Source: a virus
Strand: one strand, 5' to 3'
DNA: 64,000 nt
Virus record (IMG/VR): IMGVR_UViG_3300050821_009780
Span: 1-64,000 of that record
Below the pieces are notes generated by a model that did not search any database, was not told the origin of the DNA, and was given only the letters and a program-made list of their open reading frames with translations. The translations under genes were made by a program, and so were the position numbers. This document shows positions 16,412 to 53,326 of this stretch, piece after piece (positions within the stretch are counted from its first letter, which is position 1; each line of letters begins with the position of its first letter).

Positions 16412-16999
16412 TCACTTGAAGTGCCGGTCCGCGTCGGCCAGCAGGAACCGCAGCCGCCCCGCCAGCCGCAGCACCGTGCGCTCGCGCACGGTCGCCCAGC
16501 CGCCCCGCAGCTTGGTGTGCAGCGACGCCTCGTCCAGCTCCAGCGCGGCCTTCAGCAGCTGCGCCATGAGGTCGTCCCACAGCGGGACGGGCACGCTGTC
16601 CCCGGTCACATCCGCCGCCCGCCCGCCGGACCGCTGAATCATCTCGGCGACGTAGTGCCGCTGGAACTCGGACGGGAACTGGCGCCTCAGCTGCAGCAGC
16701 GCCGCCTGGCGGGCGGAATCGCGGAGGTGCCGCAGCTCGACGTTCTCCGGGATTTCGCGGATCTTGCGGTTGTACTCCTGGTTGGCCTCCCGGCACCCGC
16801 AGGTGCCCGCCGCGAGCGGCCATCCCCAATCCCCGCTGCGCTGGCGCTTGTGCTTCTGGTAGCCCCGGTTGGTGCCGTGCCGGAACTTGGCCTTGGGCGA
16901 ACTGAACGTCTTGCCGCAGTCGCCGCAGTGCACCTTGCCGCCCGGCAGCTTGGTGCGGTTCTTGGCATGGCGGCACGGCCACTGCTTGGTGGTGGGCAT
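16412..16999 (-). CDS. Zn-binding protein with an HGT..GY..H..CxC motif (putative regulator)
   Basis: ATG at 16999; CRH..CGDCG and RHGTNRGYQKH...TCGCREAN motifs, common in actinophage DNA-binding proteins. Confidence 0.55.
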   Translation of the reverse strand: MPTTKQWPCRHAKNRTKLPGGKVHCGDCGKTFSSPKAKFRHGTNRGYQKHKRQRSGDWGWPLAAGTCGCREANQEYNRKIREIPENVELRHLRDSARQAALLQLRRQFPSEFQRHYVAEMIQRSGGRAADVTGDSVPVPLWDDLMAQLLKAALELDEASLHTKLRGGWATVRERTVLRLAGRLRFLLADADRHFK

Positions 17000-17196
17000 A
17001 ACAGCTGATCTCCCGTGACGTAGTCGCGCAGCCAGCCGAACGTCTGCTCGCGGCCGGACCACTCCGCGTTGAACGGGGACCAGCCGGCCAGGGCGCGGTC
17101 GGTGGGCTGCTGCCACAGCAGCAGCATGCAGCTGGCGGCACTGACATCCAGCTCGGGCTTGCGGCGCAGGACATAGGACGGAAGCTCGAAGTTCAT
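16999..17196 (-). CDS. Hypothetical 65-aa protein whose natural end is a TTA codon overlapping the next ATG
   Basis: MNFELPSY...DYVTGDQL-TTA(17001-16999). The formal ORF runs on as junk sequence to 16687. Confidence 0.5.
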
Positions 17197-20464: not shown

Positions 20465-20784
20465 GGGCCGGCGGGCGGGGCGGGCGGGGTCTCCAGCCCC
20501 TTCACCTGCTCGTCCACGGCCTGCAGGGCGGCGACGGCGGCGGTCAGCCCGGACGTGTCCACCGGCTGCCCGGCGGCGAGCTGGCCCTGAATAGCGGAAA
20601 CGGCGGCGACGAGGTCGGCGGTAACCGCCTGGATGGCGGAGATTGCCGACCTGATGTCATCCTGTGCAGCCATGAGCTTGCCTACTTTCTGGGAGAGTCC
20701 TGCGACCGCAGCCTGCAGGGCACCGACCTGCTTCGTCAGTGCCGTGATAGCCGGCTGCCACGGTGCCCACGTAAACGGCGACAT
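20461..20784 (-). CDS. Coiled-coil hypothetical protein
   Basis: ATG at 20784 follows a CCGATCA motif; heptad-rich Ala/Leu/Gln sequence. Confidence 0.6.
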   Translation of the reverse strand: MSPFTWAPWQPAITALTKQVGALQAAVAGLSQKVGKLMAAQDDIRSAISAIQAVTADLVAAVSAIQGQLAAGQPVDTSGLTAAVAALQAVDEQVKGLETPPAPPAGP

Positions 20785-21386
20785 GCCCTGGTGATCGGTG
20801 CAGTAGCACCATGCTCGTAGAGGTAGTTGATTCCTGCCTCCAGCACCTCGACGTTGTCGCGGGCATGGCCAATCATAAGGTTGCAATGCTTGCACAGCAG
20901 CCCCCGGAGCGCACCGCCCTCCTCATGGTCATGGTCGATGCAGAAATACTCATCCTCCTGACCGCTAAACCCACGCCACGGCTTGCTAGTACCGCAGATG
21001 GCACACTTGCCTTCTTGCTTCGCGAACTGCTCGGCGTACCACTCAGGAGTAGCCCCGATCTCAGCCCAGCGACGCTCACGGCTGTACTGACGCATGTGTG
21101 CACGACGAGCTTCCAGCTGCTCATCAGTGAGGCTGTCGCCCCAGTGCTGACCTGACGCCTTACGTTCACGCCTAAGTGCCCTATTGGCATCTCGGACCTT
21201 AACACGTACGTCCTGTGCATTCTCCGTACGATGCGCCTTCTTACGGTCACGGTCGCACGGCTTGCACCGCTCCATGATCCCGCGCTTACGGCTAGCGTCC
21301 TTGACTGACTCTTCCACCGGGAACTTCTCGTGGCAGTCCCGGCACACGAACGTCTCTCTGTTCTGCATTGAACGAGAATAGCACAC
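20736..21386 (-). mobile_element. Free-standing endonuclease VII-family homing endonuclease
   Basis: QEGKCAICG...IDHDH..GALRGLLCKHCNLMIG..DNVEVL..YL, with an N-terminal CxxC Zn module. Lower GC than the flanks. Confidence 0.85.
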
Positions 21387-30793: not shown

Positions 30794-33700
30794 TCACCCC
30801 CTTCCGCTGAGGTAGGCAAGCTTGTTGCTCGCCCGGGTGATGGAATCAGAAGGCTTCTCGGGGACCGGATTAATAATGTTGACATCGCCGGTGACGTTGA
30901 CGCCGACCCGCGACTGCGCGGCCCCGGCCTCGGACAGCGACCGGGACGGCTCGGCCTTGCGGGTGCTGCGGTCCATCCCCCGGCCGAACGCGTCGGGCAG
31001 GGCCACCGGCATGTAGCCGTTGGTGCCGGGCACCACGATGGAGAACCGGCCGGCCACGTCCCGCAGGGTGGGCGTCACCAGCCCGCCCCCGGCGAAGCCG
31101 AGCCCGCCGTCGCCGGGGGAGACGGGCGTGCCGGGGCCGCCGAGAATCACCTCGGGGGTGAGGTTCTGCGGCGCGACCGTGACGGGGTAGGTGGTGCCGA
31201 CGGGACCGGCGGGGGCGGGGGTGCCGCCGCCCCCGCTGCTGCTGCCGAACGCGTACTTGGTCAGCGGGCTGACCGGGCCCCAGCCGCCGGCGTTGCCTGC
31301 CTGCATCTGCCAGTCCACGGCGGTGCGGTCCCCGTAGATGCCCAGGGTGGTGGGGGAGTGGACGTGGCCCTGCCAGATCTTGCCGCCGTGCACGTCGTCC
31401 ACGGCCAGCATGTAGTCGGTGGCGCCGGAGACCGGCGGCCACTTCCAGGTGACCTGGTCGCCCGCGTTGGACACGGCCACGTGGCCGGGGAAGGTCTGCG
31501 GTTCCCGGCCGGCCGAGGAGGACCCGGTCACCCCGGTCAGGGTGTAGGCGTGCACGGCGCTCGGCGGCCCCCAGCCGCGGCCGTTCAGTGCCTGCAGCTG
31601 CCAGCTGACGATCTTGTGGCCGTCGAACGCGAGGGTGACGGGCGACGACACGAAGCCCTGCCACAGCCCGTCGGTCGGGCCGGCGGTCACCGTCAGCCAG
31701 TAGGCGGTGGCCCCGCCGACGGGCGGGAACTTCCAGGTGACGGCGTAGCCCTTGTTGGTCACGGTGACCGGGCCGGGCGAGGTGCGCGGCGCCCCGGCGG
31801 GGGTGGCGTAGCCGGGCTTCGGCGCGGTCGTGCCGGGCGGGGACGGCTTGGGGTTGACGGGGGGCGGGGTGACGGGGGGCGGGGGCGGCTGCTTGGTGGC
31901 CGGGGCGGGGACGGTGCTGGCGATCCCGCCGCTGGCCAGGCCGGGGATGATCAAGCCGCCGGCGGCGTTGTTGGGGATGCCGGCGATGGACGCGGCCATC
32001 GCCAGGCCGGCCGGGTGCACGTCGTTGACCCCGGCCCGCTCCACCCCGGTATCCCAGTCCTGGGCGGCCGAGTTGAGCGAGGTCTCCCCCTCCATCGTGG
32101 TGATCGTGGCCTGGTCCCCGCTGGAGTTGACGAAGGCGATGATGGCCGGAAGCTGGGTCTTCATGCCGCCGCTGAAGTCGGCGTCGGAGATGGCGGAAGG
32201 CGGGGTCCAGCCGATCAGGCCGCGCCCGCCGGAACCGGACGCGGCCGGGTTCCAGCCCGACTCGCCGTCAATGGACGCCACCGCGCCGGCGGCGGCGACC
32301 TTGTGGCCGCCGAACAGGTTGGCCAGCAGGTAGCTGTAGCCCTCCTTGGCGTTGGCCAGGTCGGACCCGGTGGCCCCGCCGGCCGCTGCCGCCGCCGCGG
32401 CGGCCTTGGCGGCCTGGGCGGCGGAGATGGCCGCCGTGAGCGCGGCGGTGTTCAGGTTCAGGTTGACGGCGAAGGCGGCGCCGCCGGAGGCCAGCCCGGG
32501 CACCATCAGGGGCACCATCATGCTGGACCCGTCGCCGCCGACCGCGCCGCCGCCGGCCCACTGCTGACTGGCCGCGATGCCCCGGCTGCCGGCCCCGAGC
32601 CAGGAGTCGGCCTGGTTCAGGCGGTGCAGGTAGCCGGGGCCGTACTGCTGCTCCAGCGCCATCCGGGCGGACTTGCGGACCACGAACTCGCCAGGCATGA
32701 GCATGGCGTGCACGCTGTCGTGCTCCCCGGCCCCGGCGACGGAGCCGTGCTGCGCCTGGCGGCTGGCCCCGATGGGGCCGCCGGATGCCTTGACGGTGAC
32801 GGTGACGTTGCCAGACGCGTTCTTGATGCCGGTGTCGATGTCGTTGGTGATGGCGGTCTCGGCACCCTGGGCGGCGTTCCCCAGCGCGGTGGTAATCGCG
32901 GTGCCTGCCTTGGTGACGGCAGCGGGCAGGGTGCTGTTGAAATAGGTATTCATCGGGGTCTCGACCTGACCCACGAACACCAGCATGGCCGAGGCCCAGG
33001 CGGTGCCCCAGGTCGAGACCATCTTGGTGAGGTAGCTGTTCATGGTGACGGTGAAGAACAGCCCGAGCGGGGTCTCCACGGCCTTCTGGAAGTCGGCGGC
33101 GGCGTTGGACCAGGTAGAGGTCCACAGCGCAGCCGTCTTGCTGAAGTACCCGGCGATGGTGACGGTGAAGAACAGCCCGAGCGGGGTGATCACGGCCTTC
33201 TGGAAGTCGCCGGCGGCGTTGGACCAGGAGGTGTTCCACAGCGAGACGGCCTTGTTCAGGTACCCGGACATGGTGACGGTGAAGAACAGCCCGAGCGGGG
33301 TCTCGACCGCCTTCTGGAAGGTGCTGGCGGCGGTGGACCAGGTAGAGGACCAGAGCGCGCCCGCCTTGCTCAGGTAGCCGGCCAGGGTGGAAGTGAAGAA
33401 GGTCTGGACGGGGGTGACGACATCCTTGGCGAAGCTGGTTCCCGCCCCCGTCCACAGCGTGCTCATCTCGGTGGTGGCGCTGCCCGCCCACCCCTTGAGG
33501 CTGCTGGTAAAGAACGTCTGCACGGGCGTGGCGACGTCCTTGGCGAAACTGGTTCCCGAGCCGCTCCAGAGCGTGTTCATCTCGGTCGTGGCCGAGCCGC
33601 TCCAGCCCTTGAGGCTGGAGGTGAAGAAGGTCTGGACCGGGGTAACGACATCCTTGTTGAAGCTGCTCTGCGCGCCGGACCAGAGCGTGCTCATCTCGCT

Positions 33701-36700
33701 GGCGGCGCTGCCGGTCCACCCCTTGAGGCTGGAAGTAAAGAACGTCTGGGCCGGGGTAACGACGTCCTTGGCAAACGCGCTCTGCGAACCGGACCACATG
33801 GTGGTCATCTCAGAGCTGGCGCTGCTGCTCCAGCTCTTGAGGCTGGAGGTAAAGAACGTCTGGACGGGGGTGACGACGTCCTTGGTGAACGCCCCCTGGG
33901 AACTCGACCAGGCGGCGCTGACCTCGGTGCCCGCGCTGCCGGTCCAGCCCTTGAGGCTGCTGGTAAAGAACGTCTGCGCCGGGGTGACGACATCCTTGGT
34001 GAACGCGGCCTGCGAGCCAGACCAGGCGGTGCTGACCTCGGTGCCCGCCGTTCCCGCCCACCCCTTGAGACTGGAGGTAAAGAAGGTCTGGGCGGGGGCG
34101 CTGACATCCTTGGCGAACGCGCTCTGCGACCCGGCCCAGGCGGCGGTCACCGAGCTCTGCGCGGTCTTGGCCCAGCCGGGGAGCTGGCTGGCGAAGAAGG
34201 TCTTCGCCGGATCTGCGACGTTCTTGGTCAGGGCCGAGCCGGAAGCGGTCCACAGGGCGGCGACCGAGGCCTGCGCGGCCTTGACCCAGCCGGGGAGCTG
34301 CCCGGTCAGGAGGTTCTTGACCGGGGTCGTCAGGTCGGCGTTGAGCGAGGTGCCGGCCTTGGTCCACATGCCGGCCAGGATGGTGGAGTCCGCCGCGACG
34401 TCCGCCTTGAGCACGCCGCCGAACGCCGTGTTGAACTCCACCCCCATGAGGGTGGCGGCGACCTTCCACAGGTTCGCAATCTGCCCGAGGGCGGTCTGGA
34501 ACTCCCCGACGAGGCCGCCGCCCGCGAAGTGCTGCACGCCGCCCTTGACGGTGCCCGCGGCTGCGGGCTGCGGACCCTGCTTCTTCGCCTGCTGGGCGGC
34601 CATCTGGGCCGGGGTGAGCTGCGCCGTCGTCCCCTTGTGCGCCTGGTTGAGCTGGTCCAGCACGCCGGGGCCGTGCTGCGCCTTCAGCGCGTCGGCGGCG
34701 GGCTTCTGCAGGACGAACTCGCCGGGGGTGAGCATCGCGGGCACGGTGTCGCCCTGGCCCTGGCCGGGGACGTGGCCGCCCGCCGCCTTCTTGACCGGCG
34801 GGGGAGGGCCGCCGCCGGGGAGGCCGGGGAGGCTGCTCCCCGCCCCGGCCGGGATGGAGCCGAAGAGCGTGTTGAAGCTGGCCGCGAAGTTGGCCGCCGC
34901 CTGCGCGCCGGCCTTCGAGAACGCCTGGGTGAGCGGGTTGGTGTTGGCCTGCGGCGTGATGATGGTCTTGTTGATGGTGGCGATTGCCTGGTTGCTGAAG
35001 CCCAGCGAGTGGAGCAGGGTGTCCAGCTGCGTCAGGTCGGTCTTGGGACTGATGTTCAGCGAGTTGAGGAAATCAATCTGCTGCTTGTTGAGGTTCAGCT
35101 TGTCGTAAGTCTTTTGCAGGTTGTCCTGGAACGTAACGGTGCTTGCCCCGACGACCAGCCCGTCGATAATCTTGATTTGCGCTGTGGTAAGACCCAGGTT
35201 GCTCAGCAGCTTGTTAACCGACTGCAAATTAGCACCCGGCTTAATCTGCATCTGGTTGATTTTATCGATTATGCCCTGGGGAAGACCGAGGTCATGGAGA
35301 ACGGTGTTCAAGTCGTTCTGGAACGGGGTCATATTCGGGTTGATAACCTGAGCATTGATTTTCCCGATTTCCGTCGGGGTCAGCTTCAGGTCGGACAGCA
35401 TTTTATCCAGCTGGGTCAGGTCGGTCTTGGGCGTCAGCTGGAGCTTGTCCACCGCCTGTATCTGGGCCGGGGTCAGCCCGATCTGCTTGAAGAACGTGTT
35501 CCAGGCGGTGAAGTTGGTCCCCGGCCCGATGATCAGCTTGTTGATGGCGGCGATGTTCTTCTGCGATATCCCGAGGCTCGACAGCCAGGCATCGTAGACG
35601 TGGAAGTCGGTCTTCGGCCCGATCGTGAACTTGTTGATGGCGGTGATCTGGGCCGGGGTCAGGCCGAGCTTGACGTAGTAGTTGTCGAAGGCCTGCGCCC
35701 CGACCGGCGGCGCGATGACCATTGCATCGATCTTGGAAATGGCGGCCGGGGTCAGGTGCAGCTGGCTGAGCAGCTTGTTGATGTCGGTAAGGTTGGCGCC
35801 CGGCTTGATAACCAGCGCGTTGACGGCGGATATCTGCTTGGGAGTGAGCTTCAGGGTGTTGAGGTAGGCGTCGATGGCGGTCGTGCTGACCGGGACGTGC
35901 ATAATGAGCTGGTTGATAGCGGCGACCTGCGGCGGAAGGAGCCCTATCTTCGCCAGCATGGCGTCGATGGCGGTCACGCTGGTGGTCGGGGCAATCCGCA
36001 GCTTGTTGATCGCAGTTATCTTCTGGATGGACACGCCCGTGTGCGCGGCCAGCTCGTCGATTCCGGCCCAGTCCACCTGGGGCTTGATGACCTGCTTGTT
36101 GGCCGCGACGACGTTATCCGACCAGAGGGTCAGCGCAGTCTGCCGGGCCACGCCCATCGCGCTCAGGGTGGTCAGGAACTCGGCCTTGGCCTGGGCCATC
36201 CCCGTCGGGGTGGTCCCGTACACGGCAATCAGCGCGTTGGCGATGGCGTTGGCACCGGTGATGTCCTGGGGGGAGATGATCCCCTGCTTGAGCTGATCCT
36301 GGGCCGAGTGGATGGTCGTCTCGAAGTTCGCGACGGCCTTGGTCATGCCCGGCATGTTGACCAGCGCCGCGCCGATCGCCTGGTTGAGGTCGGTGTTGAC
36401 GGCGGCAGCCAGGTTGATGGTGTCCTGCTGCAGGTTGGACGACGAGGTCTCCAGGTACCCGACCTGCTTGTTGAGGTCCGCCGTCGTCTTGGACGCCTGC
36501 TGGTTGCCGCCCGACCACTTCACCAGGGCCGCGTAGGTGTCCGCCCCGGTGTAGCCCATCTGCTGCGCCAGGGCGTAGGCGGCGTTGGTCGCCTCCTTCG
36601 AGCCGTCGCCCTGGGCCAGCAGCACGTTGACCATGTCCTGCCCGGCGTGCTGCAGGGAGCCGTAGGACGCGGCGGTGTTGCCGGCGGCGGCGTTCTGCAG

Positions 36701-39700
36701 CTGGAGCTGGCTGTAGAGTCCCTGCGCCGCAGTGGCGTTCTGCTCCCAGGACTGGCGCAGCGTGAGGCTGTTGGCGTTCAGCCCGGTCATGGACGCGCCG
36801 GCCGCCTTGGCGTTCGTGCTGACGGTGTTGATGCCCGTCAGGAACGTCTCCAGCTTGGTCTCGCCGCCGGTGACCATGGTGTAGAACTGGGTGAAGTCGC
36901 CGGTGAGGGTGGTGATCTGGCTGTTGGTGGTCTCGCTGGCCAGGGCGACGGCGTCGATGGAGTTGCCGACCTGGTTCATGTGAGTCGAGACCTGGTAGCC
37001 GGCGACCCCCATGTTGGTCCAGCCGGTGACCAGCGCGTTGACCTTGCTTATCTGGACCGACATGCTGTCGGTGACCTTGACCCCGGCCAGGTCCATCAGG
37101 GCGAACGCCTGGTCGCCGGTCACCCCGAACTTCTTCATGCTGTACGAGACCGTCTGGATGGCGGCGTCCCACCGGTCGTTATCCGCGACCAGGGCCGCGT
37201 AAGCGGCGCCGCTCTGCGCCTTCAGCTGCTGGAACGACCCGAACAGGTCGGTGATGGCGCTCTGGAAGTGCCCCGAGGTGATGTCGCCCCAGAAGCTGAC
37301 GGCACCCCCGGCTCCCGTCTGGTTGACCGGCTGGTTGAGCTCCTGCCGCAGCACGCCGTACTGCGTGCCGAGCTTCTGCATGTCGGTCTGGAGCTGACTG
37401 AACCCCTGGGCGGCGTTGAGGTTGTTCAGCTGGGTGTTCATGGCGGAGATCTCGGCCGGGATCGCGCCGCTGGCCTTGTTGAACTGGTAGAACTCGTAGG
37501 CCGCGCCGCCGACGGCACCGGCGATGGCGAGCCAGGCCCCGGCCGAGATGCCGGCCAGCGCCCCACCGATCTTCTGGATGGTGCCGCCGAGCCCGGCCGC
37601 CTCCGGCTCGGCGTCCTTGGCAGCGCCGCCCAGCTTGGCGACGCCCGACTCCAGCTGGCTCACGTTCGCGCCGCCGACCAGGGCCATGGAGGCGGTGGCC
37701 TTCTCCACGCCGCCCAGCCCGGACATCGCGGCCTGGGTCTCCGGGGTAATCTTCCCCAGGTCGGCCGCCAGGCCCTCGGCGCTCTTGCCGGATGCCGCGA
37801 CGGAGATGGCCGCGGCGGCAGCCTGCTTGTCGGTCAGCCCGAACGCGTCGGCCAGGGCCTGGACATCGCTGTTCTGCGACGTGACCTTGACCATCTGGTC
37901 GTAGGTCAGGCCCAGGTTCCCGGCCATGGCCAGGGCGGCGCTGTCGCCCTTGGCGAACAGGGTGCCGATGTTCTCCAGTTCCGGGGTGAGCTGCCCCATC
38001 TGGATCAGCTTGGCGTTGGACGCGCCGACCGAGCTGGCGAGCCCGCCGAAGACGTTGCTGCCGCCCGTGATCTTGGCGACCAGGCCGCCGAACTGGGTGA
38101 TGAGGGTGCCCGTGTACCGGGTCAGGTCGATGAGGGCGGTGGAGAGCAGCCCGCCGTAGTGGACGACGGCGAAGACGGCGATGCCGAAGGCAATCACCTG
38201 CGGGCCCATGGCGTTCATGGCCTTGGCCAGCAGCGAGAAGGCGTAGGCGAGTCCCTCGAAGAGCAGCTCGGAGACGTGGGTCATCTGCCCGGCCTGGAGG
38301 AACTCGGCCCCGATCTTGAGGATGGAACCGCCGATGGAGCCGAGGATCTTCAGGTCGTTGACGGCGGTCTCGATGAGACCGGACAGCTGCCCCGAGTGGG
38401 AAGTGAGCGCCTGATCTACCTTGATGAAGGTGTCGGTGATGAAGGTGCCGGTCTTCTGGGCAACCCCCTGCATCAGGCCGAGGACGCTGGTGAACGTCTG
38501 GCCGAACGCCTTGATGGGCGCGGTCTTCTGGGTCAGGGCGTCGATGGCGGCCCCGTACATGGTGACCACGGTCGGGGCCATGGCCGCCTGGATGGACCGG
38601 ATGGTCACCGGCATGGGCTTCATGGTCGAGTCGAGCGTGCCCATCTTGGTGCTCAGCGGGCCGATGTGATCGGTGCCGAGCACGTCCGCGCCGGTGCCGA
38701 GGGCGTCCAGCGCGGTGTGCAGCCCCTGGACGTGCGCGAGCAGGTCCAGGACGGACGGCTCGGCGGCGACGCCGAACGCGCCGAGGGCGGTGCCGGCGGC
38801 GATGACCGCGGGCACCAGGACGATGAAGAAGTCGATCAGGGTGTGCAGGGCGACGGCCCACACGCTGATGGTGGCGGCGAACGGGATGCTCTTGAACGCC
38901 CCGCCGAACAGGGTCAGGTCCTTGGTCCAGCCGCCCCAGGCGGCGATGGCGAGGTTGACCAGGCCGGTGGTCTTGGCTACGGAGGCGCCGCCCTGGTCTA
39001 CGGACTGCGTGGCGCCATCCTGCGCGTTCTTGACGAGGAGGGCGGCGGCTGCCGCGTTCTTGGCCGCTTCGGCAGCGCTCATCGTGGACTGGCCGAGCTT
39101 GTCGTAGCTGCCGGAGGCCCCGCTGACGGCGTCCCCGGCCTGCTGCGCGGCCAGCGCCTCGGCGACCATGCTCTTGGCGAACTGCGCCGCCGTCGGCGGC
39201 CCCTGGGCCTGGAGGCCGAACCAGTGCTCGTACTGCGCGGCGTTGGACTCCAGCGCAGCACCGTTCGCGTTCAGCGCGGCATCGGCCTGCTGCACCACCG
39301 GGATGAACCGGGCCATGGACAGCTCGCCGGACTGCACGGAGCCGACGAACCGGGTCCAGTCCACGTCGTTCGCGGCACTGCCGACCTGCTTCAGCGCGGC
39401 GGCGTCGGCCATGGCAGCGGCGGCGTTGGCGTTGAACCCCTTGGCCGAATCGTCGGCGTCGGTGCCGGCCGTCTGGGCGGCCTTTCCCGCGGCCAGCAGC
39501 GCGGCCTGGGTGTACAGCTGGCGGTTGCCCAGGTCGGTGGTGGCCTGGCCCATCTTCGCCAGCTTGGCGGACGCCTCGTCGGCCGACATGCCGGTGGCCA
39601 GGAACGCGTCGGCCAGCTTCCTGGCGGCGGCGGCCTGGATGCCGGCGGAATCACTGGTGAACTTGGCGGCGTTGGAGGCCCGCGCGGCCTCGTAGTCGAA

Positions 39701-41781
39701 GGAGTCGCCCGCCTGGTGAATCTCGTCGGCGGCACCGTGCACGGCCCCGCCCAGCCGGGTCCAGGCGGCATCGTCGTTAGGGTTGGGTGCCGACTTGTCC
39801 ACGTCACTGCCCAGCGTGGACAGCACGGCCTCAGCCTGCCGGACAACAGGGATGAACCGGGCCATGGACAGCTCGCCGGACTGCACGGAGCCGACGAACC
39901 GGGTCCAGGCGGCATCATCCGCCGGGTTGGGCGCGGCCTTGGCCAGGGCGGCGGCTTGCTCGGCCAGGGCGGCGTCGGCCTGCTTCACCACCGGGATGAA
40001 CCGGGCCATGGACAGCTGGCCGGACTGGACCAGAGCGATGAACTTCGCCCAGTCGTCGTCATCCGCCGGGGTGGGGACCGGGATGTCCGGCGGAGGCCCG
40101 CCGCCGCCCCCGGCGTGGCCGGCCGTGACCAGTTCCTCGGTGACCAGCTCGGTGACGTGATCGTTGGCGTGAAGGCGGGCCTGGAACGCCATCCACTCGG
40201 CGATGGCCTTGTTGATGCCCGTCAGCTGGACGGCGGTCTTGGCGTAATCGGGAACCTCGTTCAGCTTGGCAATCCAGGCTTCCAGCTGGGCCTTGGCCTG
40301 GTCGTCGGTGAACCGGGCGGTGGTGTCGAGCACCTCGGGGACGATGCCCAGGTCGCGGAGCCAGATCTCCAGGTCTCCCTCGGCCGCTGCCGCGCTGAAG
40401 ACGGCGTTCACGGTGACGCTATCCGGGAGCGCCTCCAGCTGGGCTATCAGGGCGGTGAGATCGGCCTTGGCCTTCTCGTCGTCGAAGACCACCCGGACGG
40501 TCACCTCGGCGGGAACGGACCGCAGCTGGGCCAGCAGCGCGGCGAGGTCATCCTTGGACGCCCGGTCGTTGAAGACCGCGTTGATGGTGACGTTCTCGTT
40601 CTCCGGGGTCTTGCCGACCGCGATAAGCGACGTGGTGATGTGCTCGGGGATGCTGTGGAGCACGGACTTCCACAGCGCGACGTCGGCCAGGCCCTGCTCC
40701 GGGTCGGCCTTCAGCTCGGTGGTAACCGAGGTCGGCACCCCGGCCAGGGCGGAGTTCAGGGCCTGCGCCCCGGCGACGCTGCCCTCCTCGCCCAGCTGGG
40801 TAACGGACTTGTGGGTACCCTCGATCGCGTTGTAGTAGGCGAGGGCGGCGTCGGTGTTGGACTTGTACAGCGCCGCCCGGCGCTCCAGCTCGGCGTTGAA
40901 GTCACGGTACAGGGCGGTCTGCTTCTGCAGGTACTGCAGGTACTGGTCGGCGGTGAAGTACCCGGCCCACTCGGCACGGTTCATGAGGAGCTTCTGGGTG
41001 TACTCGGTCTGGCGCCACGCGTAAGCCTGCTGGGGCGTGGTGAACATGAGCCAGCGCTGCCGGTTCAGCAGCGTCTCGTACTCCAGCTCCTTGCGCATGT
41101 CGGCCAGGTGCGTGCCCATGTCCGACCGTCCGCCGAACAGCGACTGCTCGTTGTACCGCTTGTAAGCATCCGACGTCGTGTTAACGGCGGCGGTCTCATC
41201 CTTTAGTACACTTATTTCTTCCTTGCGGACGGAGATAAGCCGCTGCTCGTCCGATATCTCGTCAACAACAGCCCGGTCCAGCTTCTCCAGCGTGCTGGTG
41301 ACATTCCGGTACGCCTCGTCGGTCGCCGTGACCTTGTTTACCGTCTCGTCCCGGACGGTAAACGAAGAAATAGTATCCTTGTACCGCTTATAGGACTCAC
41401 TGGCCAGGTCAACGGCCGACACTTCTTCTTTAAGTCCGTCAAGAACAGAACTGTGGTAGCTCTTGTAAGAAGCAGCAAGGGCCTCAATCGAATTCTTCTG
41501 CAGCTTCAGCGACTCGATTGAGGTGTCGCTGTAGTCCTTGGATGCCGCCGCCAGCGAGTCAAGTGCAGTCCGCTCCTCGGTGAGCTTGCTGATCTCATCC
41601 TTGTGAGCGTCTACCAGCTTCTGGTACTCGGCAGTCTGCGCCTTAGCGGCGTCGCCTCCGGCCTTTCCCAGTGCCTCCAGGGCAGCCTTAGCCTCGGCTG
41701 CCTTGCGCATGAGGTCGCCGAAATCGGCAATTGCTTTATAAAGGACAACTCAGGAGGTAACCAGTATTCCTCTCCGGCCAT
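30794..41781 (-). CDS. Tape measure protein (~3,650 aa) with a phage-tail-lysozyme-like domain and two FN3-like domains; 5' end frame-interrupted
   Basis: Lies after the chaperones and is Ala-rich helical with 38-aa Trp/Phe repeats, two DTVPAMLTPGEFV-type motifs and a GESGWNP..GRGLIGWT lysozyme-like motif. The main ORF is 30794-41710; the likely N-terminus MAGEEYW from ATG 41781 is in another frame. Confidence 0.9.
32990..34330 (-). repeat. Tandem ~114-bp (38-aa) repeats in the tape measure gene
   Basis: The unit F-x-KDVVTP-x-QTFFTSSLKGW recurs at ~114-nt spacing (e.g. 33421, 33650, 33764, 33878, 33991, 34105). Confidence 0.85.
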
Positions 41782-41845
41782 AACTCAGCCGCCAGGGAAT
41801 ACTGCAACAGGGTGGAATTCACCCCGGCTCACCTCCCTCCTCCAC

Positions 41846-42487
41846 TCAGCCGACCGTCTTGATGTCGAACGACTGCTTCCCGTGCCCGTCCGTCCAGCCG
41901 CTCCGCAGGGCCTCGTAGGAGCCCTGCGCGTTCTTCCGGGCCGCCGCCTCCGTGTCTCCCTGGAACACCCACGCCGGGAGCACGTCGTCCGCCTCCGGCC
42001 CGTACTGCACCAGCTTGTCCAGCCCCGGGTCGGGGGGCGGGTTCAGCCGCGGGTCGTCGCGGTAATCTGCCGCGACCACCGGGCCGCGCATCTCCTCCAG
42101 CTCCCGCTCCTCCGGGGTCAGCTTCCGGACGCTGCCGGTTCCGTCTATGGAAATCGCCCGCACCGCCTCCAGCAAGGGGTTCTCCTTCCTGCCCCAGTCC
42201 ACCAGCCCCAGGCCCGCCTGCGCGGCGACGAACAGCGAGACGGTCTTGGCCTGCCACTCGGCCAGGCTGGCCCGCTCCTTCTGCTCTAGACGGCGGCGGG
42301 TGCCCGCCGCTTCCGCGCACTGCCGGAGCCGGCAGACGGGGAGATCGAGGAGGTACTCGTCGCTCCATCCGTACTCGGCGCTGAGGAGGTCGAAGAGGCT
42401 GGCGTAGGCTCCGGCAAGTGAAGATCCTGGGCTTCGGGTGCCGTCTCCGCCTGGCCCATCCCGGTGGCCTTCTTCGCCACCGTCCAC
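41846..42487 (-). CDS. Tail assembly chaperone, frameshift-extension (T) segment
   Basis: Overlaps the chaperone gene in the -1 frame; FDLLSAEYGWSDEYLLDLPVCRL motif; lies directly before the tape measure gene. Confidence 0.7.
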   Translation of the reverse strand: MDGGEEGHRDGPGGDGTRSPGSSLAGAYASLFDLLSAEYGWSDEYLLDLPVCRLRQCAEAAGTRRRLEQKERASLAEWQAKTVSLFVAAQAGLGLVDWGRKENPLLEAVRAISIDGTGSVRKLTPEERELEEMRGPVVAADYRDDPRLNPPPDPGLDKLVQYGPEADDVLPAWVFQGDTEAAARKNAQGSYEALRSGWTDGHGKQSFDIKTVG

Positions 42488-42948
42488 AGGGCCCGGAGCT
42501 TTTTTCCCAGGGACTGCAGCTCGGGTGCCTCGTTCGCGACAATCACCTCGAACAGCGCGAGGGTGTCCCCGACCTCCGGGTTAAACAGCTCCTCGTTGAA
42601 CCGGTCCCACAGCTCCTGGTTGTGCTCGGACTCCTGCTTGGTGATGTGCTGCGGCTTCTTCTCGCTCAGCCCGGCGGGCTTGCACATGGACTGCAGGAAC
42701 GCGACGGTCTCCTGCTCGGCGTCGGGGACGGAGACCAGCAGCAGGCCGAGCAGCTTCTGCCCGAACGCGGCCTGGTCCTCGTTGAAATCGAGCTGGGCGA
42801 TGGCGGGTCCGGCACCGCGGGTGAGGATGCGGAGCAGCCGGAACATCTGCCGGGTCTTCAGCCGCACCACCTCGACGGGGAACCCCGACTCCAGCTTGAC
42901 GGTGACTGCTTCCGGATCGATTCTGTCCAGCTCGGACTCTGCTGCCAC
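42286..42948 (-). CDS. Tail assembly chaperone (G)
   Basis: Located between the tail tube and tape measure genes; slippery sequence GGGAAAAAAG at 42508-42499. Confidence 0.75.
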   Translation of the reverse strand: MAAESELDRIDPEAVTVKLESGFPVEVVRLKTRQMFRLLRILTRGAGPAIAQLDFNEDQAAFGQKLLGLLLVSVPDAEQETVAFLQSMCKPAGLSEKKPQHITKQESEHNQELWDRFNEELFNPEVGDTLALFEVIVANEAPELQSLGKKLRALWTVAKKATGMGQAETAPEAQDLHLPEPTPASSTSSAPSTDGATSTSSISPSAGSGSARKRRAPAAV

Positions 42949-48503: not shown

Positions 48504-49808
48504 CTACCGCACCGGGACGGGGCCGAGTTCCTCCTCGCGGCGGCAGGCCATGGCGGTGTCGTAGACCTGCGCGCCGACGCCGTTGCTGGTCACCTCGTCG
48601 CGGATGCGGCGGAAGAGGTTCTCCACCACCACCGACCAGTCGCACAGCTTCGGGATCAGCTCGGCGGCCTTCTGCCCCTTATCCCTGGCCTCGCTGCGGT
48701 GCGTGTAGATGTGCCAGATGGTCTCGGCGAGGTGCTCCACGCTGACCTTGGCATCGTGCGCGCCCCACGGGCAGTATCCGAAGGTGGCGCCGAGCTTGTA
48801 GTCCAGCGGGTAGGCCCAGTCCCCGCCCATCCACATGGTGTGGCCGCCGAAGTTGGTGGCCGCGACCGCCCCGGCGGTGGACATGAACTCCAGGGCGGGC
48901 AGGTTCTTGCCCTCGCCGCGGCTGGGGGCGAGCAGGCAGTGGCTGGCGGCGTACATGTCCTTGACGCCCTGCACGTCCAGGGACGACACGAACACCTTGA
49001 TGCCGGCGTGCGCGAACGGCAGGTTCAGCTCAGGGAACAGGGTGCCGGGAAGGCTGGTGTGCAGCGCGAGGCGGGCATCGGCGAACGCCCCGCCCTTCTC
49101 GTCCTTGAGCTTGTGCCACGCCTCGATGACGAGCCACGGCTGCTTGCGGGCGTTGAGCGCCCCGTGCATGAGGAACTGGAACCGGTCACTGTGCCAGTCG
49201 CGCTCGACCGGGCGCCACAGCGAGGAGTCGTAGCCGCCCTGGAGGATGCCGGACTTGACGGTCTTGGGGATGAACGGCGCGAACGAGGCGAGGGACACCG
49301 GGTCGTAGCCGAGCACCAGATCGTACCAGCGGAGCCGCTCGCGGAAGCTGGACTTCTGCTTGGCGTGCGGGTACAGCCCGGAGGCCGGGGGCTTCCGGCA
49401 GTTCCGGCAGCCGGGGACGCCCAGCTCGTTCTTGCCGTTCTCCTTCAGGTGCCTGGCGCACGGGCGGAGGATGGGCACGCCATCCTCGCGGAACTCCGGC
49501 GGCGGGGCGAACTCCCACATGGACCAGCCGACCGCGACCCGGGCGCTGGCCCGGGCCTCGCGGGTGATGAGCAGGTGGTCGGGGTCCCAGTGGTTGATGA
49601 GCAGGTCCCACGGGCCGTACAGGGTCTTGCCGAACAGCGGCATGAGGTCGGCCGGGATGGGCACATCCAGCCAGGTGGGCTGGACGTACACGTCGCAGCC
49701 CCAGCGGTGCAGCGCGCGGACCAGGCCGAAGCCGTCGTTGCCGTATCCGGAGTACTGCGAGAAGGGGGCTAAAGCCTTAACACAGACCTTCAAAGGCCGG
49801 TTAAGCAT
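48504..49808 (-). CDS. GT-B (GT4-like) glycosyltransferase
   Basis: SGYGNDG, WSMWE, GALNARK and LLAPSRGEGKNLPALEFMS (EX7E motif). Confidence 0.85.
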   Translation of the reverse strand: MLNRPLKVCVKALAPFSQYSGYGNDGFGLVRALHRWGCDVYVQPTWLDVPIPADLMPLFGKTLYGPWDLLINHWDPDHLLITREARASARVAVGWSMWEFAPPPEFREDGVPILRPCARHLKENGKNELGVPGCRNCRKPPASGLYPHAKQKSSFRERLRWYDLVLGYDPVSLASFAPFIPKTVKSGILQGGYDSSLWRPVERDWHSDRFQFLMHGALNARKQPWLVIEAWHKLKDEKGGAFADARLALHTSLPGTLFPELNLPFAHAGIKVFVSSLDVQGVKDMYAASHCLLAPSRGEGKNLPALEFMSTAGAVAATNFGGHTMWMGGDWAYPLDYKLGATFGYCPWGAHDAKVSVEHLAETIWHIYTHRSEARDKGQKAAELIPKLCDWSVVVENLFRRIRDEVTSNGVGAQVYDTAMACRREEELGPVPVR

Positions 49809-49814
49809 TGGGCA

Positions 49815-50402
49815 TCACCTCTTCGTCGCGGCCAGATAGGCCGCTATCTCGTCGGAGAACTGCTCGTACCAGCCCAGCGAACCATTGCACTTCGTGCACA
49901 ACAGTCCCCGGACACACTTGCCGCAGGAAGTAGGGCCTGAGCAACAGCGCCTATCGTGATCAACAGCAAAGTGCATGAACACGAACTTAGAACCGCGACG
50001 CTCGCCCTCAGCCATCTCCTGCAAGGACCGACTGCATATCCGACAACGTCCTTGCTGCTCGTCGTACATGCGCCAGTAGTCATCAGGATCTATGTTGAAC
50101 TGACGACGCAGCTTCCGCTCCCAGCGGGCATCAGCTTCCCGGGCTACCCGCTCAGTATCACGAGCATGCCAGGAAGCCTTCGCGTACTCGCGCCTACAGT
50201 CCTTGCACGGCACCATGAGACGACCATCTGGATACTTATAGAAGTCGTCTCTATCCTTCTCACGAGTGCACTGATAGCACGTCTTACGAGTCGGACGACA
50301 GGAAGGCCCGCAGTGCTTCTGAACTGAGCCTGTCGGCTGAAACTCTTCTCCGCAGCCAACGCACACCCTAGTAGGCCACTTAAAGTCAGGAGGTCTAACC
50401 AT
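49815..50402 (-). mobile_element. Free-standing endonuclease VII-family homing endonuclease inserted at the glycosyltransferase 5' end
   Basis: QQGRCRICS..AVDHD..CC..SCGKCVRGLLCTKCN..LG; lower GC; flanked by duplicated RPLKVC coding sequence. Confidence 0.85.
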
Positions 50403-52849: not shown

Positions 52850-52985
52850 GGTACTCGTCCCCCGCGCGCCTGACCGCCTGGGCGGTGCAGGCCGCGCAGC
52901 GGCAGCGGAAGAAGCGCCGCCGCTTCCGGGGCGGCGGCTCCTGCTCGGGCTCCTGCTCGGGCTCCTGCGGTTCCTCGTCGGCCAT
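52842..52985 (-). CDS. 47-aa peptide (acidic EPEQ repeats, basic patch, CxCxxC)
   Basis: The ATG at 52985 overlaps the TTA of the upstream gene. Confidence 0.45.
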   Translation of the reverse strand: MADEEPQEPEQEPEQEPPPRKRRRFFRCRCAACTAQAVRRAGDEYRA

Positions 52986-53326
52986 AACGTCCCTACCAGG
53001 ATGCCGGTGTCGGTGCCGTCGCCGGCAACCCAGGTGAACTCGCCCTCGGCCCCGACCGGCCGGTGCATCATGCAGCGGCAGCAGTAGGTGGCCCCGTAGA
53101 AGCCGGGCCGCCGGGCGTACGTCTCGCACAGCGCCAGGCCCATGGTGGTGACCGCGCCGCACTCCGGGTCGTGGTGGAGGTAGGAGCGGTACACCGGGCG
53201 GACGAACCCCTTGGCCCGCTCCTCCTCGCTGAGCACCAGGTACTTGCTGTTCATGCCCTTGGGCTCGCGGTCGGCCCCGTGACCCAGCTCCGGGTCGTCC
53301 GGGTCGGTGGTCAGTCCCGTACCCAT
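52985..53326 (-). CDS. Zn-binding hypothetical protein ending at a TTA codon
   Basis: YLVLSEEERAKGFVRP..H..CG..TTM..ETYAR.P.FYGATYCCRC..H...LVGT-TTA. The formal ORF reads on into the tail terminator gene. Confidence 0.6.

Follow-up and report, generated by a model that had tools for sequence, protein, structure and literature searches.

The region immediately upstream of the tape measure gene in this soil phage most likely contains the 5′ control elements of a UUA-triggered translational bypass of the phiHau3-terminase type, in which a hairpin would act as the 5′ stimulator and short open reading frames (uORFs) would feed ribosomes to a buried AUG. Taking the comparative sequence data and the folding models together, the probability of this reading is put at about 0.8. 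The window referred to below is the whole stretch of viral DNA that was analyzed, 64,000 nucleotides in length, and every feature discussed in it lies on the minus strand.

Comparison with uninterrupted relatives shows that the tape measure gene starts at AUG 41781, breaks after seven codons, and resumes at GUU 41749 in the -1 frame. The first segment (41781-41761) is made up of the AUG and six further codons, translates as M-A-G-E-E-Y-W, and ends in the take-off codon UGG at 41763-41761. It is followed by a coding gap of 11 nt (41760-41750) that opens with UUA (41760-41758), continues with five bases able to pair with the SD core, and closes with UGA (41752-41750). The UGA is proposed to be a near-cognate landing triplet for tRNA-Trp, matching the take-off UGG at two of three positions, and is also the stop codon that closes the tape measure frame on its 5′ side. 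The second segment (41749-30794), which is in the ORF list and has PHROG tape measure hits, runs for 3,651 codons from GUU 41749 plus a stop, contains no in-frame UUA or AGA, and has a GC3 of 0.93.

The closest relative, L035, is uninterrupted, shares 61% identity, and lacks the leader. It has no counterpart of the insert at 41760-41750, and UGG there is followed directly by GUU. The peptide of the first segment is the N-terminus of both L035 and L012, and the three differences from L035 in this segment are all synonymous. Once the 11 nt are taken out, every one of the first 23 residues matches L035 (23/23), with eight synonymous and no non-synonymous differences, while the next 34 codons contain 18 non-synonymous differences. 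The same N-terminal motif is found in the uninterrupted P0002, P0004, and L012. These comparisons show that both parts of the gene are under purifying selection, each in its own frame, with the junction exactly as in uninterrupted relatives, and the selection patterns support a putative single polypeptide joined across the gap.

Gaps of the same design are found among relatives, where 18 interrupted gene variants contain 24 gaps in all. These range from +4 to +16 nt and fall at five codon positions, none beyond codon 17. The next zero-frame codon after take-off is UUA in 23 of the 24 and AGA in the other. Take-off and landing triplets are identical in 14 gaps, synonymous in 5, matched at two of three positions in 3, and unmatched in 2; L044 and L051 have no matching landing triplet. 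Relatives with a gap at the same codon as the window's are L020, L008, L013, L019, L039, and L057. Among close relatives, gap lengths vary modulo 3, one site having gaps of 13, 14, and 16 nt, and one gap of the family is in frame with a stop inside. All predicted joined peptides match the family consensus, and the segment between two gaps shows mostly synonymous change. A pattern scan of viral contigs found no second copy of the window's own gap. DNA and protein searches of isolated phages returned no match, and therefore yielded neither a cultured relative nor a host. No prophage relative was found by N-terminal alignment against 185,579 prokaryote genomes, and an ESM Atlas look-up of the neighboring glycosyltransferase gave no host hint.

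At 0.82 per 1000 codons, UUA is used less than any other sense codon in the phage, which has no tRNA genes. The UUA-decoding tRNA is assumed to be scarce in the host, an assumption based solely on phage codon usage. Several other accounts of the gaps were rejected. Reading of UGA as Trp through a variant code was set aside as UGA is a normal stop in this genome (GC 69%), introns or RNA editing because the gaps are just 4 to 16 nt long, and transcriptional slippage for want of a long homopolymer. A strict genome-wide scan for matched codons around UUA, AGA, CUA, and AUA produced an apparent gap at 105421, which is an out-of-frame UUA within a clamp-like gene. The loose form of the genome-wide scan returned noise only and missed even the true site.

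The stop codon of the chaperone T (GT) frame (41848-41846; ORF 42487-41846) lies directly 5′ of a purine-rich SD tract at 41843-41829. An earlier note on this DNA had claimed that the strong SD within this tract (41840-41831) belongs to short uORFs rather than to the tape measure start, and this is confirmed by the SD-led GUG starts at 41832 and 41822. With about 50 nt separating the tract from AUG 41781 and about 120 nt separating it from ATG 41710, it serves neither directly; in L035 an identical SD lies 5-6 nt 5′ of the tape measure start. From GUG 41832, uORF2 (41832-41785) is translated for 15 codons to UGA 41787-41785, which does stop 3 nt short of AUG 41781 as described in that note. 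From GUG 41822, uORF1 (41822-41736) has 28 codons and ends at UAA 41738-41736. Its frame spans the 5′ arm of hairpin 2, discussed below, and contains UUA at 41783-41781 (the 14th codon) and at 41741-39. The first of these overlaps AUG 41781 as had been noted, but it does not end the uORF, whose frame continues to the UAA.

AUG 41781 itself lacks an SD and lies buried in hairpin 2, with the uORF2 stop 3 nt upstream. In all long-leader relatives, the end of an upstream ORF falls between about -7 and +11 nt relative to the main start, and the layout of an SD-led short ORF ending near this start is also present in L020, the L008 clade, L039, L057, L044, L051, and L015. Within the tape measure family, long leaders are found only 5′ of interrupted genes. 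The window's own leader has no close relative, being absent from L035 and L012. UUA trinucleotides number 3 in the 110-nt leader stretch, compared with 0.19 expected from the genome. A promoter and terminator scan of the leader found no such site.

RNA folding was among the checks proposed in the earlier note, and the leader folds far better than its shuffles. The 110-nt stretch reaches -51.4 kcal/mol, compared with -34.9 +/- 3.6 kcal/mol for 200 dinucleotide shuffles (z -4.62; 0/200 as good), and another folding test gave a z of -4.1. Two hairpins are predicted by the minimum-energy folds. Hairpin 1 (41826-41808) has 7 bp and a 5-nt loop, and its 5′ arm contains the start codon of uORF1. Hairpin 2 (41804-41762) is made up of a 5′ arm at 41804-41794 and a 3′ arm at 41773-41762. 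The core is the perfect 9-bp stem around AUG 41781 that had been reported earlier (41804-41796 with 41770-41762), and the AUG is contained in an inner 5-bp stem and apical loop. The last base of the 3′ arm is the middle base of the take-off codon UGG. When tested against shuffled upstream sequence, the hairpin 2 duplex gave p=0.012. The SD-complementary motif that had been pointed out in the 11-nt gap is likewise there, as CCUCC within 41760-41750, and in the minimum-energy fold the gap pairs with the 3′ part of the SD tract (41837-41829); this pairing is a prediction from the window's fold alone, and none was seen in relatives. Comparison of the leader with Rfam gave no family match.

Stems of this kind are also associated with take-off sites in the relatives. 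An upstream complement to the 12 nt whose 3′ end is the take-off codon is present at p<0.05 at 10 of 18 sites; among control positions, taken from uninterrupted genes, the figure is 2 of 42 (Fisher combined p 3e-9; Mann-Whitney p 6e-4). Of the 18 sites, 4 have no significant stem. Stem position follows the take-off codon in L044, L051, L002, and L011. Where a gene has two gaps, the 5′ arm of the second stem is supplied by the first gap, and compensating changes are seen. Covariation, also proposed as a check, is thin within the L008 clade, where 98% of cells are paired but there is a single compensatory pair, which is not above shuffles; the case for the stem is made by the comparisons across lineages. 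A 3′ arm that ends in the take-off codon, and a stem that tracks this codon among relatives, fit a 5′ stimulator of bypassing. On this reading the stem is not chiefly the lid over the AUG, opened by a paused uORF ribosome, that the earlier note had envisaged. That note was right to treat the hairpin, UUA, and hopping as belonging together; the UUA it singled out was the uORF codon at the AUG, whereas the key one appears to be at 41760-41758.

The translational switch proposed in that note is the strongest of the alternatives, and we consider it unlikely. A ribosome on uORF1 pausing at the UUA over AUG 41781 would keep hairpin 2 open and thereby license initiation. The SD of uORF1 is well spaced and its UUA does overlap the AUG, and the published uORF of adpA, with UUA about 5 nt 5′ of the main start, provides a parallel. 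However, a ribosome stalled at this UUA would hide the AUG rather than expose it, and the upstream-frame UUA is partly automatic from the main-frame Ala-Tyr codons. In a variant of the switch, the uORF1 ribosome would hop from GAG 41786-41784 to the main-frame GAG 41772-41770, resulting in an N-terminally extended protein. L015, L044, and the L008 clade do have an upstream-frame X-UUA with a matching or near-matching main-frame codon a few nucleotides downstream. In the window, the first downstream GAG (41774-41772) remains in frame with the uORF and would be a dead end, and in four lineages the upstream frame simply stops near the start. The main start is preserved as AUG or GUG in all leader-bearing lineages, which argues for its use. 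The switch would also still require the hop at 41760. Judging by the upstream ORFs of the long-leader relatives, termination-reinitiation, probably from uORF2, is the better account of how ribosomes reach the buried AUG.

The UUA-triggered bypass may then proceed as follows. Ribosomes would enter at the SD tract and read a short ORF, melting the hairpin that buries the AUG. Termination at UGA 41787-41785 would be followed by reinitiation 3 nt on, at AUG 41781. After seven codons, peptidyl-tRNA(Trp) would sit on UGG in the P site, while the A site would contain UUA, presumably decoded slowly. Behind the ribosome, the 5′ arm of hairpin 2 would be free; its 3′ arm consists of 9 nt, the last of which belong to the take-off codon, and re-forming of the hairpin at the mRNA exit would favor forward movement. 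The peptidyl-tRNA would unpair, and the ribosome would slide 11 nt and re-pair on the near-cognate UGA. This would place GUU in the A site, and its decoding would yield the tape measure protein of 3,658 residues. Alternatively, UUA may be read as Leu, which would result in a 56-residue dead-end peptide; the yield of bypass would rise when the UUA-decoding tRNA is scarce. The yield is probably low, which would suit a protein present in few copies per virion. With just 7 residues joined at take-off, the nascent chain runs the risk of peptidyl-tRNA drop-off and is too short for a nascent-peptide signal of the gene 60 type.

Ordinary frameshifting is improbable by comparison. Here, UUA would be read as Leu and a -1 shift would follow after UGA 41752-41750, for example at A_AAG 41738-41735, resulting in an altered N-terminal stretch. 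A_AAG is a shifty tetranucleotide, and because no stop closes the start frame before 41611, the whole of 41749-41611 formally allows a -1 shift. An X_XXY_YYZ heptamer is absent from both 41763-41735 and the proposed shift region, and the UGA ending at 41750 closes the tape measure frame on its 5′ side. A late shift would also replace the residues after Trp, yet those 13 codons, which lie 5′ of ATG 41710, differ from L035 at third positions only. Among relatives, gaps at the same site have a net change of +1, +2, or 0, and one is in frame with a stop, so that no single shift mechanism fits; the invariant UUA and the matched flanking codons are also left unexplained. A -1 slippery run is found elsewhere, near 42508-42499, in the G/GT gene of the chaperone, whose G and T frames both have PHROG tail assembly chaperone matches.

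It is just as improbable that no recoding takes place and that the tape measure protein is simply made from ATG 41710, with 41845-41711 being a decaying relic of an endonuclease insertion. Gene callers do begin the ORF at ATG 41710, as they do for the related protein P0001, which has the same internal Met and may itself be interrupted, and this Met is common in the family. It is absent, however, from interrupted relatives such as L007. No SD is present 5′ of 41710. The eight synonymous and zero non-synonymous differences over 23 codons are found upstream of and around this position, and the segments between gaps are conserved as protein, while the UUA, the matched codons, and the stem are all non-random. 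It is barely credible that the 11 nt arose through an error of assembly or sequencing, or that the phage genome is defective. The record is one metagenome-assembled contig, but CheckV estimates it to be complete. Several independent samples and lineages have gaps of this design at the same codon, and identical copies are found in 3-4 separate metagenomes each.

The origin of the gap may be linked to mobile endonucleases. An Endonuclease VII or HNH gene adjoins the gene start in L008, L011, L015, L020, L044, L057, L045, and L051, compared with 0 of the 7 uninterrupted loci tested. In the window, no endonuclease is present between the chaperone stop and the gene start, which are 65 nt apart, and the two Endonuclease VII genes of this genome are located away from the tape measure start. 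Judging from the relatives, the gap and leader are probably parts or remnants of a homing-endonuclease cassette from which the endonuclease gene itself has been lost here. More tentatively, and with slightly less than even odds, the leader may be the residue of a portable "hop cassette", an endonuclease element that inserted beside the start of an essential gene and brought with it the gap, the 5′ arm, and the SD-led ORF; the nuclease would since have been lost, with the phage still dependent on the rest. The UUA-led gap would break the gene and probably also the nuclease's own target site. The stem would have its 5′ arm fitted to the host-gene codons just 5′ of the gap, and the SD-led short ORF would supply ribosomes to the now-buried start. 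Two-gap genes would chain such devices, since their first gap is the 5′ arm of the stem for the second hop. If this holds, tape measure supply and tail assembly would hinge on poor decoding of UUA by the host.

Natural bypassing is known from very few systems, namely T4 gene 60, the yeast mitochondrial byps, and the candidate phiHau3 terminase. Between them, the locus and its relatives provide 24 natural gaps within a single gene family, together with uninterrupted controls, and the varied gap lengths, moving take-off codons, co-varying stems, and near-cognate landings could be used to derive the rules of UUA-triggered hopping. For annotation, gene callers would be placing the start of an essential tape measure gene 71 nt too late. 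Short UUA hops appear tied to homing endonucleases, as in T4, which hints at a common evolutionary route in which selfish DNA breaks a gene and recoding rescues it.

T4 gene 60 has a 50-nt gap with a stop codon, UAG, in the A site and a take-off codon inside its own stem-loop, and it needs a nascent-peptide signal of about 46 residues (PMC5009743; bioRxiv 2022.08.31.505936; bioRxiv 2024.12.09.627546). As proposed for the window, its peptidyl-tRNA unpairs and re-pairs downstream with a slow codon in the A site, a 5′ stem-loop forming at the mRNA exit is thought to drive forward movement, and a mobile endonuclease is associated with the gene. The window differs from gene 60 in its 11-nt gap, its sense codon in the A site, and its 7 residues made before take-off, and there is no sequence relation between the two; in gap length, stop codon, and nascent-peptide signal it falls outside the gene 60 type. 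The mitochondrial byp inserts of Magnusiomyces capitatus, 27-55 nt in length, are known here through their citation in PMC5009743. As portrayed there, they resemble the window's family in being multiple short non-coding inserts per essential gene that are bypassed and of mobile origin. They differ in belonging to mitochondrial translation and in having other take-off rules, with no UUA rule in that account.

Two actinobacterial examples also involve a UUA. In mycobacteriophage Bxb1, the primase genes 50/51 have UUA in their overlap and are suspected of frameshifting or bypass (PMC12646305). The resemblance to the tape measure gene lies in an actinophage gene pair that may be joined near a rare UUA; the passage on these genes in that source leaves the mechanism undefined and does not describe matched codons or a stem. 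The leader ORF of Streptomyces adpA starts at GUG and has its in-frame UUA 5′ of the main start (PMC10732093). It shares with the window an SD-led short GUG ORF with UUA at or adjoining the main start, but adpA is a chromosomal regulator gene and has no coding gap after it. The bldA logic of Streptomyces may hold for this phage as well.

The closest parallel in design is the large terminase of phage phiHau3 (g6/7/8), which together with two Streptomyces prophages contains UUA-led coding gaps, according to Smith et al. 2013 as relayed by Antonov et al. 2023 (PMC10732093). Bypass was proposed for phiHau3 with partial experimental support, and the four published sites of this type are still termed "candidate" (PMC10732093). 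The terminase sites are GGC-UUA-(+10)-GGU and UCU-UUA-(+10)-UCC, the second of which has a 10-bp hairpin ending 2 nt before the end of the take-off codon. Both phiHau3 and the window have a frame-breaking insert that is absent from orthologs, an in-frame UUA 3′ of a sense take-off codon, a proposed landing triplet for the same or a near-cognate tRNA, and a 5′ stem-loop near take-off, all in a high-GC phage. The window differs in that the gene is a tape measure rather than a terminase and is broken at codon 7 of 3,658, the proposed landing triplet is the stop codon UGA, and a dedicated leader containing short ORFs provides the 5′ arm of the stem. The window's family is also set apart by its adjoining endonuclease genes and by its 24 gaps of 4-16 nt at five positions, compared with the four published sites.

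The 110-nt stretch that runs from the chaperone stop codon to 41736 on the minus strand probably, at roughly 80%, serves as the 5' apparatus for a translational bypass that UUA triggers at codon 7 of the tape measure gene, as judged from comparative sequence evidence. The phage record is 143.5 kb in length, of which the window is the first 64 kb, and is rated complete by CheckV; its GC content is 69%, and a search of isolated phages with the window gave no match. The minus strand carries the major tail protein (43699-43067), tail assembly chaperone G (42948-42286), a chaperone T frame that contains a conserved chaperone T-type motif and ends at 41846, and then the giant tape measure ORF, for which the gene caller places the start at ATG 41710. 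A classical -1 slippery run for G/GT, made up of a G-run and then an A-run ending in G, lies within the chaperone G frame (42499-42508, minus), roughly 210 nt upstream of the stop codon of G, and feeds the T frame. An open frame of 3,282 codons on the plus strand (31358-41206), antisense to the tape measure ORF, is not a gene but the shadow of a strongly biased coding strand (GC3 of 0.93).

When all three frames are read, AUG 41781 is found in a different frame from the giant ORF. The tape measure frame opens only just after UGA 41752-41750, and the 13 residues that it encodes before Met 41710 are also present in two related proteins, P0004 and P0002. The seven residues encoded from AUG 41781 also match these two proteins, after which that frame diverges. 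The nearest relative found, metagenome locus L035 (61% identity), has an SD followed after 6 nt by a GUG start; its first seven residues are the same, and they lead straight into those that the window encodes from 41749. The two are separated in the window by an 11-nt insert (41760-41750) that opens with UUA, and its removal makes the first 23 residues identical to those of L035. Across the join there are eight nucleotide differences from L035, three before the gap in one frame and five after it in the other, and all are synonymous, whereas the next 34 codons contain 18 non-synonymous differences. Purely synonymous change in both pieces, with free divergence downstream, argues that both are translated, each in its own frame, and are joined exactly at Trp-7 and Val.

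Similar gaps recur in related genes. Viral and metagenome contigs were scanned with the N-terminal alignment, which gave 53 loci, and six more were reached via the chaperone protein; loci are cited below by L numbers. About 15 lineages are uninterrupted. The interrupted genes comprise 18 sequence variants with 24 sites at five positions, all in the first 17 codons. In the zero frame, the last good codon is followed by UUA at 23 of these 24 sites and by AGA at the other. Among the sense codons of this phage, UUA is the rarest (0.82 per 1000), a search for tRNA genes in the genome found none, and the 3,651 codons after the gap include neither UUA nor AGA. The take-off codon and the landing triplet, which stands just before the resumed frame, are identical at 14 sites, synonymous at 5, alike at two of three positions at 3 (including the window, with UGG and UGA), and unmatched at 2, with hop lengths of +4 to +16 nt. 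In close relatives, the gap at one site is 13, 14, or 16 nt, lengths that differ modulo 3, and a second gap of the same gene restores the frame; a single frameshift mechanism is therefore ruled out as an explanation. Two gaps are present in five lineages, and nearly all changes in the eight codons that separate them are synonymous.

Several loci depart from the common pattern. At the AGA site (L020-L023 and L052-L054; about 2519-2536 in L020), GCU-AGA is found with an in-frame 12-nt gap that has UGA inside it, and a second GCU follows at +15. In L044 (about 694-703) and L051 (about 1191-1200), a UUA-led 7-nt insert follows a Val codon, the landing is unmatched (GUU vs GCC), and a second UUA is present two codons later in the zero frame. 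Uninterrupted L036 has ACG at the start-codon position (about 1127) and no in-frame AUG, GUG, or UUG after the preceding stop, and may use a non-canonical start. Five other uninterrupted loci (L010, L018, L024, L042, and L049) have an extra small conserved gene between chaperone and tape measure, 200-350 nt before the tape measure start, the product of which has a C-terminal part rich in Trp-Arg-Glu-Ala-Tyr-Asp-type residues and no Pfam match.

An earlier note described the window's leader as structured, with short upstream ORFs and an anti-SD sequence, and every element it listed was found in place at the coordinates given. There is a purine-rich SD tract, a 15-codon frame from GUG 41832 (uORF2) with its stop 3 nt before AUG 41781, a perfect 9-bp stem around that AUG (41804-41796 with 41770-41762), and an SD-complementary motif within the 11 nt after the stem. 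The frame from GUG 41822 (uORF1) does have UUA as its 14th codon, overlapping AUG 41781, but, as a correction to the note, that UUA does not close the frame, which continues to UAA 41738-41736, 28 codons in all. The folding energy of the stretch is -51.4 kcal/mol (z = -4.62). Within it are three UUA trinucleotides, against 0.19 expected. An Rfam search of it returned no family, and no promoter- or terminator-like sites were found in it. The predicted fold is made up of three parts on the minus strand: an outer helix pairing the SD (41837-41829) with 41760-41752 of the gap, a small hairpin holding the uORF1 start codon, and a long hairpin holding AUG 41781. The predicted helix between SD and gap is peculiar to the window among its relatives.

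In the window, the take-off codon is UGG (41763-41761), and the 3' arm of the 9-bp stem reaches as far as its middle base. To compare sites, the 70 nt ending at each take-off codon were folded, with uninterrupted genes at equivalent codons as controls. The same geometry is seen at most sites, including those where the take-off codon lies deeper in the gene by two, seven, or ten codons, and the stem position shifts along with the take-off codon in the relatives' folds. The pairing partner of the Trp-Tyr-Val codons in L044 and L051 is the leader; that of the Ile-Tyr codons, which precede a Lys take-off codon in L002 and L011, is the start-codon region. In two-gap genes, the first gap forms the 5' arm of the stem ending at the second take-off codon, and there are compensating changes between the gap and Lys-Ala-Ile codons. 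On average, 7.1 of the last ten bases are paired, compared with 4.8 in controls (Mann-Whitney p = 5e-4). For the 12 nt that end with the take-off codon, 10 of 18 sites have a significant complement upstream, versus 2 of 42 controls (Fisher combined p = 3e-9; Mann-Whitney p = 6e-4). Four sites have no convincing stem. For the L008 clade, pairing holds in 98% of cells and a single compensatory pair is seen, too little variation for a formal test. The Gln/Pro-Tyr-Ser that recurs in the upstream peptides is the reverse complement of Glu-Tyr-Trp codons and thus reflects a constraint on RNA rather than protein. The hairpin may act as a 5' stimulator of bypass, a role that we judge evenly poised.

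A long leader, defined as 35 nt or more from SD to main start, is present only in interrupted lineages (the window, L020, the L008 clade, L039, L057, L044, L051, and L015) and in none of the roughly 15 uninterrupted ones, where the SD lies 5-13 nt before the start. In each case the main start is kept as AUG or GUG, without an SD of its own, in the apical part of the stem, and some upstream frame, uORF2 in the window, terminates between about -7 and +11 nt from it. We infer that ribosomes would reach the buried AUG by termination-reinitiation; that the short ORFs serve to couple them to this start is a proposal with about equal chances of being right or wrong. It is possible that uORF1, with its UUA over the AUG, could supply a second layer. 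The earlier note instead had a uORF1 ribosome at that UUA acting as the switch or hopping, for which the adpA leader ORF offers a parallel (PMC10732093). A ribosome that paused at that UUA, however, would sit on top of the AUG, and a hop from the GAG of uORF1 first meets a GAG that stays in the dead-end frame, so this version is rated lower; the note's interpretation is partly supported and its observation confirmed. UUAUG is also found at 16999-17001 and 52985-52987 (minus), where an upstream-frame UUA overlaps the next gene's AUG at a position where a stop-start overlap is usual, and the upstream frames continue past the AUG. The genome has three cases of this kind, a number that, roughly estimated, does not clearly exceed chance.

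The ORFs adjoining the gene start were also scanned for endonucleases. In L008, L011, L015, L020, L044, and L057, an Endonuclease VII gene immediately precedes the gene start on the same strand, and in L045 and L051 an HNH gene is head-to-head with it; in L020 and L008, the 3' end of the Endonuclease VII gene itself makes up the upstream short ORF. No endonuclease gene adjoins the gene start in the seven uninterrupted loci tested, and none is present at the tape measure start of the window, which has Endonuclease VII genes at 20736-21386 and 49815-50402 (both minus). Nuclease-free lineages (the window, L002, L007, L009, and L017) share gap types with nuclease-bearing ones, which indicates that gaps outlive the nuclease gene. 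The whole device is probably a relic of an endonuclease cassette. Directly downstream of the Endonuclease VII gene at 49815-50402, a glycosyltransferase gene (ATG 49808, minus) has an in-frame UUA as codon 13 (49770-49772), flanked by Ala codons (GCU before, GCC after) in an unbroken frame; the UUA may be the site of an in-frame hop, or simply a codon that is read slowly.

A literature search found no report of UUA-led gaps in a tape measure gene, and a UUA near the Bxb1 50/51 junction has drawn comment (PMC12646305). The large terminase genes of Streptomyces phage phiHau3 and two prophages contain 7-10-nt inserts starting with UUA, with 3 of 100 terminase genes affected; bypassing during bldA tRNA scarcity was proposed, and the junction peptide was seen in E. 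coli once UUA was replaced by a stop codon (PMC10732093). Streptomyces phages GreenWeasel (ON526974.1) and BroPlease (ON526970.1) show 97-100% identity at about 2583-2688 to the end of the phiHau3 terminase part g6, in a feature annotated only as a hypothetical protein, and may carry the same UUA gaps. The phiHau3 terminase is the closest published case, and in the locus as read here both of its sites share the anatomy of the window site, and at the second a 10-bp hairpin stops 2 nt short of the take-off end. T4 gene 60 has in common with the window's family the idea of a 5' stem-loop and a link to mobile endonucleases (bioRxiv 2022.08.31.505936; 2024.12.09.627546), but its gap length, its stop codon in the A site, and its nascent-peptide signal set it apart from the window site.
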